Below, piece by piece: positions 5,886-16,253 of a DNA stretch of 30,797 bases. The position numbers were made by a program, and so were the translations under genes. Source of the DNA: Nautiliaceae bacterium (GTDB taxonomy: Bacteria > Campylobacterota > Campylobacteria > Campylobacterales > Nautiliaceae); the NCBI GenBank assembly GCA_039831155.1, contig JBDONT010000031.1, positions 1 to 30,797 on the forward strand. Direction: 5' to 3'. Position 1 is the first letter of the stretch. Each line of letters starts with the position of its first letter. The notes beneath the pieces are model-generated. The model did not search any database. It had not been told where the DNA came from and saw only the letters and a program-made list of their open reading frames with translations.

Positions 5886-6782
5886 ATGCTAAAAGAAAAA
5901 CTTAAAGGAAAATATATAACACTAGAAACAACTCCTCCTAAATTACCGACTGTAGATTTAATGATTGAAAATATAAAAAAAGCCGACGTCATTAAATACA
6001 TAGACGGATTTTCCACAACCGACTGTCCTCTTAGTAAATTAAAATACAATTCAATCATTGCAGCTTTTAAGCTCCAACAGACATTCAAAAAACCGGTAAT
6101 TGCTACAATGAGTATGAGAGATAGAAATAAAATAGCCCTTCAAAGCGATTTACTGGGAGCAAACGATTTAGACGTAACGCATATCTTAGCCCTAACAGGA
6201 GACCCGGCAAAAATGAGTGACCAACCGAATACAAAAGGAGTAGTCGAAGGAAGCAGCATTTTACTACTAGAAATAATAAGAGCTTTTAACAACGGAATGG
6301 ATTACAGTGGAAAAGAGTTTAAAATAAAACCAAAACCGATTACCCCTTTTGCGGTAAGTAACTCTTACGCCAAAAACTTTTCTTATATTGAAAAAAAGAT
6401 GTATAAAAAAATTAAAAATTATGCAGTAGGAATTATAACCCAACCGGTATTTGATTTGGAAATAGCAAAAAAACTATTAAATATAAAACAAAATATCAAT
6501 AATGAATTTAATGACGAAAGAAAAGAGTCTGAAATTGTATTCGGATTTTTTCCCATTACAAAACTAAAAACCGCCCAATTTCTAAAATCTCACGTCCCAG
6601 GCATTTTTGTACCGGATATCTGGATAGAAAAACTCATAAAAGCTCATAAAATAAGTGAAGAAGAAGAGTTTAAAGTCGGAATGGAGTTATCAAGAAAACT
6701 TTTTAAAAACATTTTAAAATTACACCCAAAAGTCCATATAATGACTGCTAATAAATTTGAAATAGTAAAAGAGCTTTTTTAA
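5886..6782 (+). CDS. metF: 5,10-methylenetetrahydrofolate reductase
   Basis: LETTPPK, TDCP, MRDRNKIALQS, LALTGDP, ITQPVFD, VPGIFVP motifs. Start moved to ATG 5886 (AAGGG SD upstream). Confidence 0.88.
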   Translation: MLKEKLKGKYITLETTPPKLPTVDLMIENIKKADVIKYIDGFSTTDCPLSKLKYNSIIAAFKLQQTFKKPVIATMSMRDRNKIALQSDLLGANDLDVTHILALTGDPAKMSDQPNTKGVVEGSSILLLEIIRAFNNGMDYSGKEFKIKPKPITPFAVSNSYAKNFSYIEKKMYKKIKNYAVGIITQPVFDLEIAKKLLNIKQNINNEFNDERKESEIVFGFFPITKLKTAQFLKSHVPGIFVPDIWIEKLIKAHKISEEEEFKVGMELSRKLFKNILKLHPKVHIMTANKFEIVKELF

Positions 6783-7603
6783 AAAGCTCTTAAATAACTT
6801 ACTAAGAATACGTTAGAATACGAATCTGCTCCACTTTTACTAAATTTACTTCTATTATAACTAACTTTTACGCTAGAAACTTTATCTAAAGAGTATTTAA
6901 CTGCTAGTCCATAACTATATTTATAATCTTCTCCCAAATTATAAACAGTAAATCCACCGTTTGCAACTTTATAAGCGTTTTTTCCAAAACTTCCACTTAT
7001 TGTTGTAGCCCAAGGTCCTTTATAGTTTTCCAATTTTAAATCAATATCCGTATAATTTGTTTTAGACGTATATCCGGACTTTGAAATATGAATATAATTT
7101 AATTTAGCCTCGGCATAAAAAGCTCCATCTTCCGCATAATAATTACCGAAATTAAATCCATATTTAGGAGAAATTTGATAAGCTTTAAAATTATCATAAG
7201 TAGACATATAAACATCAACTCCGACATTATATTTTAAATACTCATAATAAGTAGCTCCTGCGAACACTACATTATCGTATTTATCACTATTGTCTTTTTG
7301 GTTGATAAACATATTATGAATTCCGATTCTATAAGCATAATTATTACCATAATAATAATTACCCAAAAACGTAATATCGGTCTGTTTATAATTAGGGGTA
7401 GTATCTTTATATTTTATATACACATATTCCGTATCCAATTCAAACTTAAAAGGCAAAGAATCGATACTAGCATATACACCTACCAATCCGGCTTTATCTT
7501 TAGCGGTATTACCGCTATAATCTATAAAAGCTCCATACGGCATCACGTTCGCCGCCATTAAAGTCGTACCGAACAATGCTGCTATAGATAATAACTTTTT
7601 CAT
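6779..7603 (-). CDS. Putative outer-membrane beta-barrel protein, last gene of the RRE/ATP-grasp operon
   Basis: Sec signal peptide (MKKLLSIAALFGTTLMA), Tyr/Gly-rich alternating amphipathic strands, terminal strand VFLVSYLRAF ending in Phe (BAM signal); ATGA coupling to the upstream gene. Confidence 0.7.
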   Translation of the reverse strand: MKKLLSIAALFGTTLMAANVMPYGAFIDYSGNTAKDKAGLVGVYASIDSLPFKFELDTEYVYIKYKDTTPNYKQTDITFLGNYYYGNNYAYRIGIHNMFINQKDNSDKYDNVVFAGATYYEYLKYNVGVDVYMSTYDNFKAYQISPKYGFNFGNYYAEDGAFYAEAKLNYIHISKSGYTSKTNYTDIDLKLENYKGPWATTISGSFGKNAYKVANGGFTVYNLGEDYKYSYGLAVKYSLDKVSSVKVSYNRSKFSKSGADSYSNVFLVSYLRAF

Positions 7604-8181
7604 TTTATCTCCTTTAGTTTATATCCTAAATTTTTTTGATTTACTATTTCAAAACCAAGTTTTCTAAGATGAGAAATCAAAACTTTTATAGAATCAAGAC
7701 TCTCTATACTTTCACATTCCTGTAGAATTTCTTCTTTAGAAAGATATCTGTTACGATTTTTTATCAACGTTTCTAAAAGTTCTTTTTCAGCTCCACTTAA
7801 TTTAACGGGGATTGAACTTTTATACAACTCCCTCGCATTAAAATTATATAATAAATCCCCAAATTTAAAAACAAAATTTGTAGAATTTAAAACCTTTTTT
7901 TTTAAATACCTAAGGCGTATCAACAGCTTTTCATATTCATTATAAGAATAGCAATAATCACCTACTTCCAAAGCTTTTTTATAAATAAAAACATTACATT
8001 CATATGCTAAAAAAATAATCGTACTTTTTACAAAATCTTTTATTTCCAAATACTCTTTAAAATAATTAAAATCTACTACCAATACATCAAATTTTTTATT
8101 CAACACCTCATCAAAAAAAGATTCTTCATCCACTTTTTTTGCATTAGGTATATCCAGAAAAGAAAAATTTAATACTCTCAT
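7600..8181 (-). CDS. OmpR/PhoB-type winged-helix regulator with degenerate receiver domain
   Basis: C-terminal LSGAEKELLETL...LSKEEIL...IKVLISHLRK...GYKL Trans_reg_C signature; N-terminal receiver keeps VLVVD but lacks the acidic pocket, the Thr/Ser and the conserved Lys. Confidence 0.8.
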   Translation of the reverse strand: MRVLNFSFLDIPNAKKVDEESFFDEVLNKKFDVLVVDFNYFKEYLEIKDFVKSTIIFLAYECNVFIYKKALEVGDYCYSYNEYEKLLIRLRYLKKKVLNSTNFVFKFGDLLYNFNARELYKSSIPVKLSGAEKELLETLIKNRNRYLSKEEILQECESIESLDSIKVLISHLRKLGFEIVNQKNLGYKLKEIK

Positions 8182-8765
8182 TTATTAAAATATTCTTTTG
8201 CTACAACGTTATTAGGGTCTAGAATAAGCACGTTTTTAAAAATTTTACCGGCATCTCTTTTTGTAAGCTCATAAATTTTACCAAGTTCAACTAAAAACAG
8301 AACACTCGTAGGATATATACTTAACATTCTATTTACCAATATTTCAGCTACTTTATAGTTTTTTAAAGCTACAAGAGATAAGACTTCATAATAATTCCCA
8401 TAATAATTATAATAATCACTCTTTAAAATCACATCTCCTATTTTCAACGCATTTGAATAATCCCCCATAGCATAGTAAACTCTCATCATTCCAAGCTTAG
8501 CTTCCAATGAAGAAGGAATACTCATAGAAGCCTTTTGATAATGAAAAATAGAATTTTTATAATTCTTATTCAAATAAAAAAGCCATCCAAGCCTTAGATT
8601 AACCGTATAAGCATTAAGATATTTATTATAAAGAGGAATGAGAACTTTTATAGCGTCTTTATAATCCCCCATTTTTTCATAATTATAAGATTCATAATAA
8701 ATCTTTTTTATATCCATTGCAAACAAACCGACAAACAAACTAATAACCAAAATTATCTTTTTCAT
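8178..8765 (-). CDS. Exported tetratricopeptide-repeat protein
   Basis: Signal peptide MKKIILVISLFVGLFA; TPR-like units (LRLGWLFYLNKNYKNSIFHYQKA; LGMMRVYYAMGDYSNAL; LGKIYE...VLILDPNN). Confidence 0.8.
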   Translation of the reverse strand: MKKIILVISLFVGLFAMDIKKIYYESYNYEKMGDYKDAIKVLIPLYNKYLNAYTVNLRLGWLFYLNKNYKNSIFHYQKASMSIPSSLEAKLGMMRVYYAMGDYSNALKIGDVILKSDYYNYYGNYYEVLSLVALKNYKVAEILVNRMLSIYPTSVLFLVELGKIYELTKRDAGKIFKNVLILDPNNVVAKEYFNK

Positions 8766-10773
8766 TATATACTCTCCTTAATTCCATTCCGTTTTTCAAT
8801 TTTATTTTATCAAAACCTTTCTCATAAAACGAAAAATCCACCTCTCCGAATTTAGATAGAATTTTTAACTGTTCTTTTTTATAAACAACTTCTTTATTAA
8901 AAATTTTGAAATTAAAAGGCAATAAAAATTCAAACAATAATTTCTTAACCCCACTAAATCTAAATTCAAAAGAGATAATGTCTTTATATTCAACTTCTTT
9001 ATTTATCAAAGGAACTTTAGGAGCCAGCTTAAACAACTCTTTTAAAAAGCTCTCTTTTCCTTCATATTCATAAAAATAAAACAGCTTCTCATCCAAATAA
9101 AAAAACAGCTTATTCTCTCCGTCCCAAAAATAGAATTCTCCCTTTTCATTCATTTTTACCGTTATCTCTTTTTGAGAAATTTTTTCTCCCTCTTTTAATA
9201 CATCATATTTAAAAACATCATCCAAAATAAAAGTAAGTCTTAATTTCATAGATTTATCAATCACACTCGCTTCTATCTCCTCACCCTTTTTAGGTGAATC
9301 ATAATAATAAAGTCTATTGTCTTTTATAAAATCCACAAACTTAAAAGGTAAAGTCTCACTTCCCAAAACCCCGTATTTTTGAACTTGAATATGGATGTGA
9401 GGCTCCGGAGAATATCCACTGTTTCCACATTTACCTATAATATCTCCACCCCTAACATAATCCCCTACTTTTACAGTAATGGAATTTTGCATTAAATGAG
9501 AAATTTCAACAAAATATCCAAAATCACTTTTTATAATAATATAATTCCCCCAATTGTTAACTCTATCTACATTTCCTATAAAATTATCCGGTAAATCATT
9601 ACGCAAAGCAACCACATATCCATTGATAGGAGCCGTTACAACTTTTCCAAAAGCATAATAATCCTCTAAAAACAACCCGTCATTAGCATATGTTTTTCCA
9701 TTCTTTTTAATAACAAAATCATAAGCATATTTCCAGCTTCCCTTATGAGTCCACTCATCGTCAAAAGCTTGATATACACTCCACTTTCCGGTAAACGGGA
9801 GGTTTATTTTAATATCGTTTCCTCCAAATCTAAAAACCAAACTCAAATAAGAAAGCAGAGATTTTTCGGGAGTCGATTTTATAGCATAATTAAAATATTT
9901 ATACCCTACGCTAAATAAAAGCATAATAAACAAAAGCGTAATTAAATTAAAAGGAAGAGTATAAACCGGCAAAGAATAGATATTAAAAAACACTTCCATT
10001 GAATCAATCAACACAACAGAAAGCACCACTCCCAAAAAAGCCAAAAGAAAACTTTTAATATTGGGAATTAAAAATATTCCTCCAAGTGCCATAGCAATTA
10101 ACAAAAAGTTAAAGTTATAAGGAGAATAAAGGGCTTGAGAAAAAGGAATAAATAAAGAGTGTACAAAAACCCCTATCCAAAATCCCACAAAAGCTAGAAA
10201 AAACAGAATTCTAGAATAAAAAAGAAGTATCAACGCTATAAAAAACCCGGCAACCGTATAAGGTAAAAAGAAAATTGTCCCTAACGACTTGAAAAAAGAA
10301 TCAAAAGGCAAATTTATATCAAAAAGAGCTTTTCTGTGAAGCAAATTGATAAATAAATTGGTATATTTTAAACTGGCTAAATAAAAAAGCATACTCACAA
10401 AAGCAAAAGGCAAAGATAAAATAGGCAAAGAATACTTAATAAAAACCCTATTTAAGCTAAAAGAGACTAAAAATGTCAAAATCGAAAGCAATATAGTTAA
10501 GATTATCGTTACATACGTTACATCAAAAAAATACCCGACCCCCATTCCCACCAATAAAGAGTTATAAAGATAAAACCCGTATTTTAAATACTCATCCCTG
10601 ATATTAATAAATTCGGCAAACAAAATCGTAGAAATAATAGCAACAAGACCTAAAATCCCCACACTAGGCAATAAAAAAGAGAGCAAAAATAAAAATGCCC
10701 CTACTTTTAAATCCTGTAAAAAAAGAATGGAAACATAAGGTTTAAAAATAAATTTTATCTTTTTTATTTTCAA
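8740..10773 (-). CDS. Urea-transporter (UT)-fold membrane domain fused to an M23 zinc metallopeptidase domain
   Basis: N-terminal ~290 aa with about 10 TM segments and the duplicated UT signature LPILSLPF / LPVYTLPF plus YNSLLVG / FNFLLIA; then M23 motifs H343...D352 (HKGSWKYAYD), APINGYV, GNYIII, GDIIGKCGNSGYS, H459-x-H461. TTG start. Confidence 0.85.
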   Translation of the reverse strand: MKIKKIKFIFKPYVSILFLQDLKVGAFLFLLSFLLPSVGILGLVAIISTILFAEFINIRDEYLKYGFYLYNSLLVGMGVGYFFDVTYVTIILTILLSILTFLVSFSLNRVFIKYSLPILSLPFAFVSMLFYLASLKYTNLFINLLHRKALFDINLPFDSFFKSLGTIFFLPYTVAGFFIALILLFYSRILFFLAFVGFWIGVFVHSLFIPFSQALYSPYNFNFLLIAMALGGIFLIPNIKSFLLAFLGVVLSVVLIDSMEVFFNIYSLPVYTLPFNLITLLFIMLLFSVGYKYFNYAIKSTPEKSLLSYLSLVFRFGGNDIKINLPFTGKWSVYQAFDDEWTHKGSWKYAYDFVIKKNGKTYANDGLFLEDYYAFGKVVTAPINGYVVALRNDLPDNFIGNVDRVNNWGNYIIIKSDFGYFVEISHLMQNSITVKVGDYVRGGDIIGKCGNSGYSPEPHIHIQVQKYGVLGSETLPFKFVDFIKDNRLYYYDSPKKGEEIEASVIDKSMKLRLTFILDDVFKYDVLKEGEKISQKEITVKMNEKGEFYFWDGENKLFFYLDEKLFYFYEYEGKESFLKELFKLAPKVPLINKEVEYKDIISFEFRFSGVKKLLFEFLLPFNFKIFNKEVVYKKEQLKILSKFGEVDFSFYEKGFDKIKLKNGMELRRVYNEKDNFGY

Positions 10774-10777
10774 TTTC

Positions 10778-12115
10778 TTAACCTTTTAAGAAATCCGGAA
10801 TAATCTCTTTTTCCACAACATACTCTAAATTATCGGCTTCTCTTATTAAGTGAGTATTTGAGTCTTTGTCTATAAGTACAATTTTAGGTCTATATCTGAT
10901 AAACTGCATAGATTGAGTAACGTTATAAGCCCCTACCGGCCAAATACTAAGTACCGTACCTCTCTCAAGAGGTGGTAACATAATATTTTCTGCAATAATA
11001 TCAATATTCATACATAAAGGTCCGTTTATCTGACTATGTTCATTTAACCCTTCATATCTTTTATCAAGAGATATCTCAAAATTGTACCAAAACGCCGTAT
11101 ACAAAAGATTCACTCCAGCATCTACAATATAACTCTTTTTACCATCCGGCATTCTTTTGGAAGCAAATACACTTGTTAATAAAAATCCGGCTTCATCTAT
11201 CAAAGCACGACCGGTTTCTAAATAAAGCTTAGGAAGTTTCCCTTTATTATGTTCAAAAATAGCATTAGTAACAGCCTCTGCATATTCATCGGCACTAGGG
11301 ACTATAACTTCCGGAGCCTGATATACACCTTTTAGTCTATTTTTTGAAGCAAATCCACCTCCTATATCAATATATTCAATCTCATATCCGAAATCTTTTT
11401 CAACTCTGTTTTTAAGTTCTATCAATTTTTTAGTTTCATTTGTATAAGCTTCGGCACTTAACATAAAAGTACCTATATGAGAATGAAGTCCGATTAAATA
11501 AAGTTTTTTACCTTCAAAAATTCTTTTTATGGCATCATAAGCCTCACCGTTATCGATATTAAATCCGAATCTACTCCATTGAGGATAAACTCCCGTATCC
11601 ATATTACATCTAATAGCCACCGGAATTTCTATTCCAAGCTCTTCCGCTATCTCTTCAAGGTCATTTATTTCATACCAATGGTCAATATGAATTTTAGCTC
11701 CTTCTTTTACTGCTACTTTTAAAGTTTCTTTTGGTTTGTAAGGTCCATTAAAGATTATATCCTTTCCTTCAATTCCAAGACGTCTTGCTTTTTGGTATTC
11801 AAATTCACTAACAACTTCGGCTTTACTTCCAAGTTTATGATAAATTTTACAAATAGCGTCAAAATAGTTTGTTTTATAACTCCACCAAAACTCAACTTCC
11901 GGATATCTACTTGAAAAAGCGTTTTTAAACTCAAGATATTTATCTTCAATTGCTCTTTGACTAAACACAAAAAGTGGACTTCCGTATTTTTCCGTAAGTT
12001 CTCTAACACTTACCCCGTCAATCTCACCTCTTATTTTTTGGGTTTTAAGTGGACTTCCATATTTACTCGCCATTGCAAAATCAACTCTATTAATAGTAGG
12101 TTTTTCATAATTCAT
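10778..12115 (-). CDS. Fold-type III PLP-dependent decarboxylase (diaminopimelate/ornithine decarboxylase superfamily, MccE-like; probably not LysA) with N-terminal extension
   Basis: SYKTN (PLP Lys), IFNGPYK, SRFG, HSHIGT, DIGGGF, ETGR, DAG, GPLCMNID, GAY motifs; AAGGAG SD. Confidence 0.85.
   Translation of the reverse strand: MNYEKPTINRVDFAMASKYGSPLKTQKIRGEIDGVSVRELTEKYGSPLFVFSQRAIEDKYLEFKNAFSSRYPEVEFWWSYKTNYFDAICKIYHKLGSKAEVVSEFEYQKARRLGIEGKDIIFNGPYKPKETLKVAVKEGAKIHIDHWYEINDLEEIAEELGIEIPVAIRCNMDTGVYPQWSRFGFNIDNGEAYDAIKRIFEGKKLYLIGLHSHIGTFMLSAEAYTNETKKLIELKNRVEKDFGYEIEYIDIGGGFASKNRLKGVYQAPEVIVPSADEYAEAVTNAIFEHNKGKLPKLYLETGRALIDEAGFLLTSVFASKRMPDGKKSYIVDAGVNLLYTAFWYNFEISLDKRYEGLNEHSQINGPLCMNIDIIAENIMLPPLERGTVLSIWPVGAYNVTQSMQFIRYRPKIVLIDKDSNTHLIREADNLEYVVEKEIIPDFLKG
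11972..12064 (-). repeat. Direct repeat encoding KYGSPL twice in the decarboxylase N-terminus
   Basis: aagtggacttccgtattt (11972-11989) and aagtggacttccatattt (12047-12064): 17/18 identical, 75 nt (25 codons) apart, in frame. Confidence 0.85.
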
Positions 12116-12130
12116 AATTCACTCCTTAAA

Positions 12131-13141
12131 TTAAATCTCTTTTTTTGATATCAACGTAGAAAATTTATTAAAATCAACCATCGTCTCTTCTACATATCTT
12201 ACATACATCTTTTCGCTAGGATAATCAAATCTTTTTTCAACTTTTTTACCTTCAATTAAATCCAATAAACTTTGAGGCAGATTAACTCCAAGCATTGTGG
12301 AAAAATACACCCACGCCGGAAATCTAGGGTTTATTTCTATTAAATATATATCTTTTCCATCACTCATAGCCTCAAACTCAAAAGCACCTCTCCAACCTAT
12401 CATTTCAACAAATTTCTTACTTACACTGAAAAGCTGTTCATTTTTAATACTCACGGCACTCCAAACTTTACCTAAATCCGTAGTGGTTAATTTTTTCATT
12501 CCCATACCTGCTACAAGACTCTCTCCATCTCCAATACCTACAAAGTTAATTTCTATCCCACTTATAACCTCTTGAACCAAAAGAGGGAATCCCCATTCAT
12601 TTGATATTTTATAATAATACTCAATCGCTTCATCCAAATTATAAGCTTTATAAGCTTTATAATAATTTCCTTTTACCATTACCGGAAATCCAATTTCTTT
12701 AGTGGCTTTTATCAAATCATCAAGAGAAACCACCTCTATGGTTTTTGGATGTTTAACACCAAGTTTTTTACTAAATTCTGGTAATTTACTTTTATCCCTC
12801 ATCTCAAAACACTCAAGGCTCGGCAGATAAGTTTTAATTCCAAGCTCTTTTATCTCTTTTTGATATTTAATATAAAGAGGAAGTTCTGCATCAAGGGTCG
12901 GAATTGCAACTTCAATATTTGACTTTTCTTTAATATCCGTTATTCTTTTTTTAAACTCTTCATACCCTAAACTAGGATACGGCATAAGATAAACTTTTTC
13001 AAAAAGCCCCTGATAAATCCCCGGTTCATTAGGGTCGTAACTAAGCCCTATTAAAGTATTTTTATCCATTAAACTTTTCGCAACCGGAATTCCGGGTGCC
13101 GGATTGTCAGTATTGTTAAGCCCACTTACTGCCACTCTCAT
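12131..13141 (-). CDS. ATP-grasp ligase (CarB-like single ATP-grasp), substrate unknown
   Basis: RDKSKL, IGFPVMVKG, LVQEVISGIE, FEFEAM, IYLIEINPRF ATP-grasp motifs; ATGA overlap with the RRE gene. Confidence 0.88.
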   Translation of the reverse strand: MRVAVSGLNNTDNPAPGIPVAKSLMDKNTLIGLSYDPNEPGIYQGLFEKVYLMPYPSLGYEEFKKRITDIKEKSNIEVAIPTLDAELPLYIKYQKEIKELGIKTYLPSLECFEMRDKSKLPEFSKKLGVKHPKTIEVVSLDDLIKATKEIGFPVMVKGNYYKAYKAYNLDEAIEYYYKISNEWGFPLLVQEVISGIEINFVGIGDGESLVAGMGMKKLTTTDLGKVWSAVSIKNEQLFSVSKKFVEMIGWRGAFEFEAMSDGKDIYLIEINPRFPAWVYFSTMLGVNLPQSLLDLIEGKKVEKRFDYPSEKMYVRYVEETMVDFNKFSTLISKKEI

Positions 13142-13374
13142 TTTATAAGCTCATATACTTTAAGTTTTTGAAAAAAATCTTCAACATCTATATAAACATC
13201 TCTACAACTTTTCCCACTCTCTTGAGATAAAATCTTTACAATCTCTTCTTTACTTTTTCCTTCTTTAATAAGCTGAATAATCTTTTTTGCAGATTCATTT
13301 AGCTGATAAGATGTCCCAAGTGAAGGAATAAATCCCATATTATTTTCGTCAATTATCATTTCATGTAACAACAT
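13138..13374 (-). CDS. Stand-alone PqqD-family / RiPP recognition element (RRE) protein
   Basis: 78 aa; three short strands then SYQLNESAKKIIQLI, SKEEIVKILSQE, DVYIDVEDFFQKLKVYELI, matching the PqqD beta3-alpha3 pattern (LN..A..I; D...F...L....LI); AAGGAG SD at 13386-13381. Confidence 0.82.
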   Translation of the reverse strand: MLLHEMIIDENNMGFIPSLGTSYQLNESAKKIIQLIKEGKSKEEIVKILSQESGKSCRDVYIDVEDFFQKLKVYELIK

Positions 13375-13401
13375 ATTTAACTCCTTTAAGTATTTGTAAG
13401 A

Positions 13402-13407
13402 ATTATA
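13402..13407 (-). promoter_or_regulatory. Putative -10 element for the RRE/ATP-grasp operon
   Basis: TATAAT on the minus strand 27 nt upstream of the RRE ATG in the 78-bp gap after guaB. Confidence 0.45.
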
Positions 13408-13452
13408 TAATATTAAAGTTAATGAAGAGTAAATAAAAGAAAAAAAGAGAGG

Positions 13453-16253
<2,801 letters not shown>

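Follow-up and report, generated by a model that had tools for sequence, protein, structure and literature searches.

A seven-gene operon of the Nautiliaceae bacterium assembly GCA_039831155.1 (contig JBDONT010000031.1, positions 1 to 30,797; this whole stretch of 30,797 nucleotides is called the window below) combines elements that are familiar, separately, from several described systems. In lasso peptide biosynthesis, discrete recognition elements (RREs) for RiPPs (peptides that are ribosomally synthesised and then modified after translation) bind the motif [Y/W]xxPx[L/V/I/F/A], as set out in two reports (PMC13381572; PMC12710340); in LppB, according to the first of these, N33 fixes the Pro kink, D70 binds the Tyr hydroxyl and F74 divides the pockets. 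For fold-III pyridoxal phosphate (PLP) decarboxylases, a further paper (PMC7857480) assigns roles to a Schiff-base Lys, a stacking His, a Gly loop, a Glu/Arg pair and a catalytic Cys. In the ornithine, arginine and diaminopimelate decarboxylases (ODC, ADC and DAPDC) an acidic residue after that Cys binds the free distal amine, a position held by Met in FigC, which decarboxylates N-acylated ornithine (N-citrylornithine). The same text has BtrK decarboxylating carrier-bound Glu, and BtrK and MccE provide precedents there for fold-III decarboxylases that act on carrier- or peptide-bound substrates. Finally, urea transporter (UT) pores narrow to 2-3 Å (PMC10541013).

The operon studied here consists of seven open reading frames (ORFs), all on the minus strand. 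Its RRE probably grips a built-in tail of a neighbouring enzyme, with the consequence that some amide or amine would be made inside the cell and released by cleavage at a pore resembling a urea channel. More specifically, and with a probability of roughly 0.4, the operon would encode an RRE-guided pathway without a precursor, in which the enzyme's own tail serves, once or repeatedly, as an acyl-lysine carrier and a cytoplasmic M23 domain releases an amide or short polyamide into the urea-type pore. The operon itself is real and is conserved in at least five phyla. The gene combination was not described in the open literature searched, a scope which leaves subscription papers and the supplements of RRE-mining studies to one side; the operon is thus apparently undescribed so far, and the first-pass annotation of the window, which knew of no characterised pathway with this gene set, is borne out by those searches. 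The genes and the parts of their products discussed below are as follows.

13138..13374, minus strand: discrete RRE (PqqD fold), 78 aa; Pfam PqqD, 9.5e-10
12131..13141, minus strand: ATP-grasp ligase, 336 aa; ATPgrasp_Ter, 1.3e-8; PRK12767-like, with a weak PylC-like N-terminus
10778..12115, minus strand: fold-III PLP decarboxylase, 445 aa; Orn_Arg_deC_N, 6e-31
12053..12115, minus strand: decarboxylase N-terminal tail, residues 1-21, predicted disordered, with Y3-x-x-P6-x-I8 and K18 (codon 12062-12064)
8740..10773, minus strand: UT-M23 protein, 677 aa, TTG start; UT 3e-60, M23 1e-12
9841..10773, minus strand: urea-transporter-fold channel domain of UT-M23, residues 1-311, by Pfam UT and structural superposition
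9289..9819, minus strand: M23 zinc-peptidase domain, approximately residues 319-495, by LytM-fold matches; probably on the cytoplasmic face
8740..9276, minus strand: C-terminal β-rich domain of UT-M23, of no named family, from a confident predicted model
8178..8765, minus strand: TPR protein, 195 aa, Pfam TPR; signal-peptide-like N-terminus and periplasmic location by inspection
7600..8181, minus strand: OmpR-family winged-helix protein with a degenerate receiver, 193 aa; Trans_reg_C
6779..7603, minus strand: outer-membrane β-barrel, YaiO-like, 274 aa, with signal peptide and C-terminal Phe; no Pfam match

The RRE scores 39.1 bits against Pfam PqqD (gathering score 23.4) and is the sole PqqD match in the host genome, which is 96.7% complete. 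Its best solved relatives are TbiB1 (8e-14) and TfuB1 (1e-8), followed by PbaB1 and LppB. With a profile score above the gathering score and an ungapped alignment to these lasso B1 RREs, the PqqD/RRE fold first proposed for the 78-residue protein is upheld as a sequence-based prediction. The residues N26, D63 and F67 align with N33, D70 and F74 of LppB and are at least 90% conserved in 53 sequences.

A probable ligand is present two genes downstream. The first 27 or so residues of the decarboxylase are unmatched in its solved relatives, which align only from residue 28 on, and in the predicted model they contrast with a well-defined protein core (predicted template modelling score, pTM, 0.87) in having predicted local distance difference test (pLDDT) values below 50 for residues 4-6 and 8-21. 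The motif [YF]xxPx[IVL] occurs in this tail in 67/67 full-length decarboxylases. It is followed by a Lys at +15 in 64 of the 67 and at +14 in the other three, while any other offset from +8 to +23 yields at most 13. Lys also stands at +15 in 120/120 top homologues and is kept in 119/119 distinct tails from all loci, these two sets overlapping. When a hidden Markov model (HMM) of the tail was run against the 38,193 host-genome reading frames of at least 20 aa, the decarboxylase alone was returned (E 1e-8; next 0.1). A looser N-terminal motif is found in 18 of 1,234 long host-genome ORFs, so that the motif on its own is weak evidence; its weight derives from its fixation across phyla beside a matching RRE. 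Judging from the conserved pocket residues, we rate it as probable that Y3-x-x-P6-x-I8 in the decarboxylase tail is gripped by the RRE in the manner of a lasso leader by its B1 protein. This modifies the initial reading of the operon as a peptide-modification system: the RRE is indeed there, but no conserved precursor-peptide gene was found near the operon among ORFs of at least 50 aa in 70 loci, and the likely ligand of the RRE is the decarboxylase tail.

The decarboxylase is a member of the fold-III PLP decarboxylases by sequence, with the corresponding putative activity: K81, H213, G252-254, E300, R303 and C368 are invariant, and all fold-III PLP residues are therefore kept. FigC is its closest solved relative both by sequence (family profile 3e-93) and by structure. 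Residues C368-M369, T340 and Y344 match FigC C354-M355, T327 and Y331, the Cys-Met loop being present in 67/67 sequences, whereas the citrate-binding H357 and R387 of FigC are replaced by invariant I371 and Q401. A FigC-like Met/Thr/Tyr pocket without the citrate-binding His/Arg suggests that the probable substrate is an amino acid bearing on its side chain an amide cap that is not citrate. An N-citrylornithine decarboxylase of the FigC/FslC type was rejected on account of this His/Arg replacement, a score of 219 against 500 for the FslC model and the lack of an NRPS-independent siderophore (NIS) synthetase in the operon. Identity with LysA was likewise rejected, since the TIGR01048 score is 235 (cut-off 298), the loop is Cys-Met rather than Cys-acid, and a true lysA on another contig scores 540; the low score and the separate lysA equally dispose of lysine synthesis as the role of the operon. 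In the ligase, K117, K157, E255, E257, E269, N271 and R273 are invariant in 69 sequences, so the ATP-grasp catalytic set is kept; it has no close solved relative, the best match being 5e-19. Tandem ATP-grasp relatives of approximately 710 aa (P0289-P0299) were also seen, named from Methylomirabilota, Nitrospinota and Acidobacteria.

The model of UT-M23 residues 1-311 superposes on the Desulfovibrio vulgaris urea transporter with Z 35.2 and a root mean square deviation of 2.5 over 303 aligned residues. Pore residues F18, F123 and N222 are found in 69/69 sequences, F169 in 66/69, and S120, the first hydroxyl, is Ser in 66/69; the UT fold and its pore Phe/Asn/hydroxyl set are thus present, the second hydroxyl being variable. 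The score against the urea-transporter equivalog is 95, below the cut-off of 275. Residues 319-495 superpose on LytM-type M23 domains (Z 12-14), and H343, D352, H426, H459 and H461 are each present in 69/69 sequences. Urea transporter termini are cytoplasmic, there is no hydrophobic segment after approximately residue 295, and the linker to the M23 domain is rich in Lys and Arg. Taken together, these features predict that the M23 domain probably lies on the cytoplasmic face and so would not be a wall hydrolase. For the C-terminal domain there is no Atlas feature match, and its structural look-alikes are only unnamed clusters and DUF6134/DUF3108; one Atlas cluster of 415-aa proteins combines an M23 domain with a C-terminal domain of the UT-M23 type, without the channel. 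Stand-alone M23 genes of the same subtype occur on haloarchaeal (NZ_CP111041.1) and Thermus (NZ_AP025604.1) plasmids, and no full UT-M23 was found on plasmids. Urea uptake was rejected as a function: searches for urease came up empty in the host genome and in 9 of the 10 other hosts examined, and the tenth gave a single match, over 36 positions of a 406-aa ORF.

The TPR and barrel proteins, whose signal peptides were judged by eye, complete the set and are fused to one another in some lineages. The assignment of the last gene as a β-barrel holds, in the absence of a Pfam match, on a predicted model that resembles YaiO-type barrels (template modelling score, TM, 0.79 to YaiO clusters, whose Atlas features stand at 0.96, and 0.85 to a TPR-barrel cluster); the other six domain calls, made originally from the letters alone, are each matched by Pfam. 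A complete make-cleave-export pathway across both membranes had been envisaged. The envelope-spanning gene set is supported, but its export function is a conjecture, and a constriction of 2-3 Å, as in UT pores, limits the cargo to slim molecules and is too narrow for an ordinary modified peptide, making peptide export in that original form unlikely.

Conservation was assessed at 70 wide loci, namely 60 newly retrieved UT-M23 regions and 10 of 22 earlier loci. A UT-M23 query or profile was the seed for choosing loci, and relatives among them are not independent. The order RRE, ATP-grasp ligase, decarboxylase, UT-M23 is kept in 68/70 of these UT-M23-selected loci, from four phyla, so that a neighbourhood search seeded with this fusion, as the first-pass annotation had proposed, does find the set conserved across phyla. 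The RRE, ligase and decarboxylase families are each found in 68/70 loci, the TPR family in 66/70, and a barrel-type or long TPR partner in 67/70 (the barrel identity of families other than that of the operon being an assignment by analogy). One conserved, envelope-spanning gene set was therefore rightly recognised, though not one of seven genes: the conserved unit is six genes, and the regulator, inside the operon in 12/17 Campylobacterota loci and 0/53 others, is a Campylobacterota addition.

The distribution is wide. The UT-M23 query matches 16 of 301 Campylobacterota genomes, including 7/7 other sampled genomes of the host family and 0/214 in the two largest families of the phylum, while the profile matches 47/101 Cloacimonadota, 22/81 Aquificota and 32/351 Bacteroidota genomes, two of these last 32 by the M23 part alone. 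Reciprocally, within a single draw of 351 Bacteroidota genomes the decarboxylase family and the channel-bearing UT-M23 pick out an identical set of 30. Within the Acidobacteriota the decarboxylase profile matches 0/151 genomes and the ligase query 1/401, that one having the full six-gene cassette.

The carrier reading can be set out as follows. The RRE would grip Y3-x-x-P6-x-I8 of the decarboxylase tail and offer the tail to the ATP-grasp ligase, which would couple an amino acid through its side-chain carboxyl (γ-Glu, for example) to the ε-amine of K18. The PLP site of the decarboxylase dimer would then strip the α-carboxyl from the amide-capped amino acid, and the M23 domain, placed where the channel opens to the cytoplasm, would hydrolyse the amide to free a slim amine or amide. 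The product would cross the inner membrane by the UT-fold pore and leave by the TPR/barrel pair, the operon being, in Campylobacterota, under an OmpR-family regulator. That the tail acts in this way as both leader and carrier, with a K18-borne amino acid ligated, decarboxylated and released at the channel, is held tentatively and at less than even odds. It is favoured because each of the core genes, and the preference for Lys as well, find a place in it, and the M23 ligands, invariant in 69/69, supply a catalyst for the release step.

Several observations weigh against it. The second pore hydroxyl position, T272, is Thr or Ser in only 36/69 sequences, and a urea-type pore of 2-3 Å is ill suited to a primary amine that carries a charge. 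No gene for a second amino-acid activation or for substrate supply pinpoints the acid to be ligated. A role in docking, or in recognition by a protease, might explain the conserved tail Lys equally well. An apparently genuine ATP-grasp/decarboxylase fusion, P0301, keeps YxxPxI with Arg at +15, and the same acylation is impossible there; two further ligase-decarboxylase fusions (among P0300-P0302) look like read-through or frameshift artefacts. Lastly, the two exceptions to the gene order are Aquificota genomes in which the UT-M23/barrel pair lies apart from the enzyme trio (the decarboxylase was found elsewhere in both genomes, the whole trio confirmed in one), so that co-transcription is not obligatory.

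Some of these points speak for a tail that merely docks. The RRE would clamp it to the ligase and thereby channel a free small molecule, the ligase acylating the side-chain amine of Orn, Lys or diaminobutyrate (Dab), the decarboxylase converting the product to an N-acyl-diamine and the M23 domain trimming or deprotecting it at the channel. The closeness of FigC with its Cys-Met loop recalls the logic of FigA/FigC, the weak PylC-like match of the ligase and the Arg of P0301 are in keeping with docking, and a neutral linear amide fits the UT pore better. What docking leaves unexplained is why Lys rather than Arg is retained in every one of the distinct tails and top homologues counted above, and why the tail persists in P0301, a fusion that needs no tether; we regard it as nearly as likely as the carrier reading, though likewise at less than even odds. 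The carrier chemistry might, on the other hand, be run repeatedly, with ligation and decarboxylation growing a polyamide from K18 (poly-4-aminobutyrate in the case of Glu) that passes through channel, TPR protein and barrel and is released or trimmed by the M23 domain. Decarboxylation does regenerate a terminal amine potentially usable by the same ligase, BtrJ acts twice, tandem ATP-grasp relatives exist, and TPR and barrel pairs are known polymer exporters. There is, though, neither a motor nor a processive synthase, and UT pores are narrow and passive; such a polymer appears quite improbable.

The direction of flux is fixed by none of the evidence here, and the barrel, TPR protein and UT pore might let in a molecule from outside or serve as sensors for it. 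Such a molecule would gate the M23 domain, the eraser, on this reading, of a mark written by ligase and decarboxylase on the tail or on a different protein. Channel and hydrolase form one fused protein throughout (69/69, ligands intact), and channel-fold sensors exist, Sensor Amt being among the fold matches. Inward signalling is nonetheless unlikely: no conserved output domain, kinase or DNA-binding, accompanies the set, and the regulator is absent from 58/70 loci. Very improbable indeed is a conventional RiPP pathway with its precursor encoded elsewhere in the genome. The RRE is of lasso type with an intact pocket, as such a pathway would demand, but the 70 loci share no conserved small ORF (at least 50 aa, clustered), the tail HMM finds no second ORF of at least 20 aa in the host genome, a lasso B2 protease match is lacking in that genome, and the pore is too narrow for a peptide.

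Should the acyl-lysine tail reading be true, an RRE and a UT-fold channel would each be put to a new use, M23 enzymes would gain a substrate of a new kind and the carrier chemistry would be new too, in at least five phyla. Mining for peptide natural products makes use of RREs in the belief that they bind a short precursor; here the RRE appears to bind an enzyme. The system is also common, occurring in 7/7 host-family, 47/101 Cloacimonadota, 22/81 Aquificota and 30/351 Bacteroidota genomes, and source annotations such as 'urea transporter', 'diaminopimelate decarboxylase', 'alanine racemase' and 'carbamoyl-phosphate synthase' mislead metabolic reconstructions of vent and anaerobic bacteria.

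On re-reading, the ORFs and junctions of the operon are as originally reported, as are its flanks. The RRE/ATP-grasp, TPR/regulator and regulator/barrel junctions are 4-nt ATGA overlaps, and the others are a 15-nt gap, a 4-nt gap and a 26-nt overlap. The inosine monophosphate dehydrogenase (IMPDH) gene guaB lies 78 nt upstream and the convergent methylenetetrahydrofolate reductase (MTHFR) gene metF on the other side. An anti-phage defence role was rejected, 0/7 operon proteins matching the PADLOC 2023 models. The Shine-Dalgarno sequence and -10 hexamer ascribed to the operon are both present:

13381..13386, minus strand: Shine-Dalgarno sequence AAGGAG of the RRE gene
13402..13407, minus strand: candidate -10 hexamer TATAAT
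13418..13433, minus strand: direct repeat in tandem, TTTAC-N6-TTAAC, with a period of 11 bp, lying 10 nt before the -10 hexamer
6769..6791, minus strand: hairpin with T tail, from a hairpin scan, a candidate terminator spanning the stop codons at which the barrel gene and metF converge

A sigma-70 scanner does not list the TATAAT site, and there is no TTGACA-like -35 element there. Terminator-like sites number 2 in the sequence and 2.4 in shuffles, so that the class of hairpin at 6769-6791 is not above chance. Written as [TC]T[AT]AC-N6-[TC]T[AT]A[CT], the repeat stands ahead of the RRE gene in 45/56 Campylobacterota regions and 1/52 others (shuffles: mean 1.0, maximum 5/56), a count that is partly circular as the pattern was picked by eye from the same upstream regions. 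A repeat 10 nt before TATAAT has what we take to be the layout of an OmpR/PhoB-type activator site, and by this analogy it is predicted to be a probable site for a regulator of that type. The in-operon regulator departs from the OmpR-family receiver set of acidic pair, phospho-Asp and Lys, in that the pair and the Lys are lost and the phospho-Asp position is D, N or H across 7 orthologues. The repeat also stands before operons that lack the regulator gene (L004, L013, L239 and L240), and self-regulation as a requirement was rejected for that reason. Given the degenerate receiver and these regulator-free operons, the repeat is no less likely to be bound by a canonical two-component regulator.

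The operon's copy of the repeat is the second-best site in the host genome. The best (contig C41, approximately 43271-43620, plus strand) precedes a small Met/Gln/Gly-rich gene with two internal stops, and in L098, L073, L239 and L240 similar repeats lie before genes for Met/Gln-rich proteins, lipoproteins and cytochrome c, which suggests that the repeat marks a small regulon. In Sulfurimonas-like loci (L013:7137, L097, L098, L101 and L104) a second copy just before the barrel gene hints at an internal promoter. Efflux genes of CzcA/CusA size are found at most some 9 kb from the operon in 7/70 loci. A response to metals could not be established: judged by locus number, the Nitratiruptor SB155-2 operon, where UT-M23 is NIS_0497, is not among the 27 genes up under both Cd and Cu in the accessible part of PMC10092412. 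Contigs from two RNA libraries of one vent sample, which may contain DNA, match positions 11735-13465, 10649-11638 and 6099-8109 without differences; neither library covers 8110-8520.

Individual loci show further peculiarities. In an Aquificaceae metagenome-assembled genome (L018:1661-3790) UT-M23 lies on the strand opposite to the operon, inverted nearly exactly at its ends, by inversion or misassembly. Broken copies are seen in L240 (decarboxylase and UT-M23 in pieces), L210 (UT-M23 split), L015 (decarboxylase split) and G296 (UT-M23 frameshifted), decay and sequencing error not being separable in these four. G642 has two matches to UT-M23 and the decarboxylase near both ends of one contig, probably an assembly overlap. 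In two Cloacimonadota loci (L213 and L214) the UT-M23 and TPR genes are separated by two insertions, an MBOAT acyltransferase gene and a gene of 315 aa. In six loci from Aquificota (L227, L228 and L231-L234) the operon is directly preceded, on the same strand, by the genes of a two-component pair, in most cases along with DUF2202 and DUF4405 genes. Proteins with FlgD-Ig or Por secretion C-terminal domains often flank the operon on the same strand (for example in L188, L189, L193, L194, L195, L197, L198, L199, L200, L206, L212 and L215-L218); the family occurs in 19/70 loci, perhaps by coincidence where a genome encodes many proteins of this kind.

It remains to set the operon against its closest counterparts. 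With the lasso B1 proteins (TbiB1, 5V1U/5V1V; TfuB1, 6JX3; PbaB1, 9X90; LppB, 9X8Z) it shares a discrete RRE with the Asn/Asp/Phe pocket and a YxxP-type motif, here on the gene two positions downstream of the RRE. Unlike in those systems, the motif is borne by a 445-aa enzyme rather than a short precursor, and the partners are an ATP-grasp ligase and a PLP decarboxylase. The RRE falls under the cut-offs of the lasso NCBIfam models, PF13471 (the B2 protease) has no match in the host genome, in a search whose control profile matched 2/14, and no cyclase is among the seven operon genes. A lasso peptide system was consequently rejected, the B1 pocket being present and the B2 match, operon cyclase and short precursor all absent in these searches. 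As to pyrroloquinoline quinone (PQQ), the PqqD equivalog score is 21 against 46 and neither pqqC nor pqqE is in the operon; the search of the host genome for pqqC was empty, as were its control searches. In graspetides an ATP-grasp enzyme cross-links Asp or Glu to Ser, Thr or Lys within the precursor core; here the tail lacks a conserved acidic acceptor in the vicinity of K18 and there is no precursor, and a graspetide was rejected accordingly.

Rhizoferrin FigA/FigC (FslA/FslC in Francisella) and SbnH offer the sequence of amide ligase followed by fold-III decarboxylase, and the Cys-Met, Thr and Tyr of the FigC substrate pocket are common to the operon decarboxylase; the operon ligase, however, is an ATP-grasp enzyme and not an NIS synthetase, and RRE, tail, UT-M23, TPR protein and barrel are without counterpart. 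In the butirosin side-chain route BtrI/BtrJ/BtrK, where BtrJ is the ATP-grasp ligase, such a ligase is again paired with a fold-III decarboxylase (BtrK match 3e-46). That route differs in its acyl carrier protein (ACP) and aminoglycoside: the operon has neither ACP/phosphopantetheine nor aminoglycoside genes, no ACP family is among its conserved neighbours, and the carrier proposed here is the tail Lys. Urea transporters (UT/SLC14; D. vulgaris, 3K3F) have the whole fold, Phe slots and Asn residues in common with UT-M23, which is distinguished by its fused M23 and further domain, an invariant Tyr13, the variable second hydroxyl and hosts mostly without a urease match. The TPR/barrel export modules (the YaiO family and the polymer exporters AlgK/AlgE, PgaA and BcsC) likewise combine periplasmic TPR and barrel, the operon differing in having no glycosyltransferase or polysaccharide synthase. 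A loose precedent is the fosfazinomycin pathway, in which, according to a preprint, RiPP machinery builds a small molecule on a separate precursor peptide that is later cut off. The operon lacks a defining feature of each of these and resembles a blend of lasso leader recognition with the logic of FigA/FigC and BtrI/J/K.

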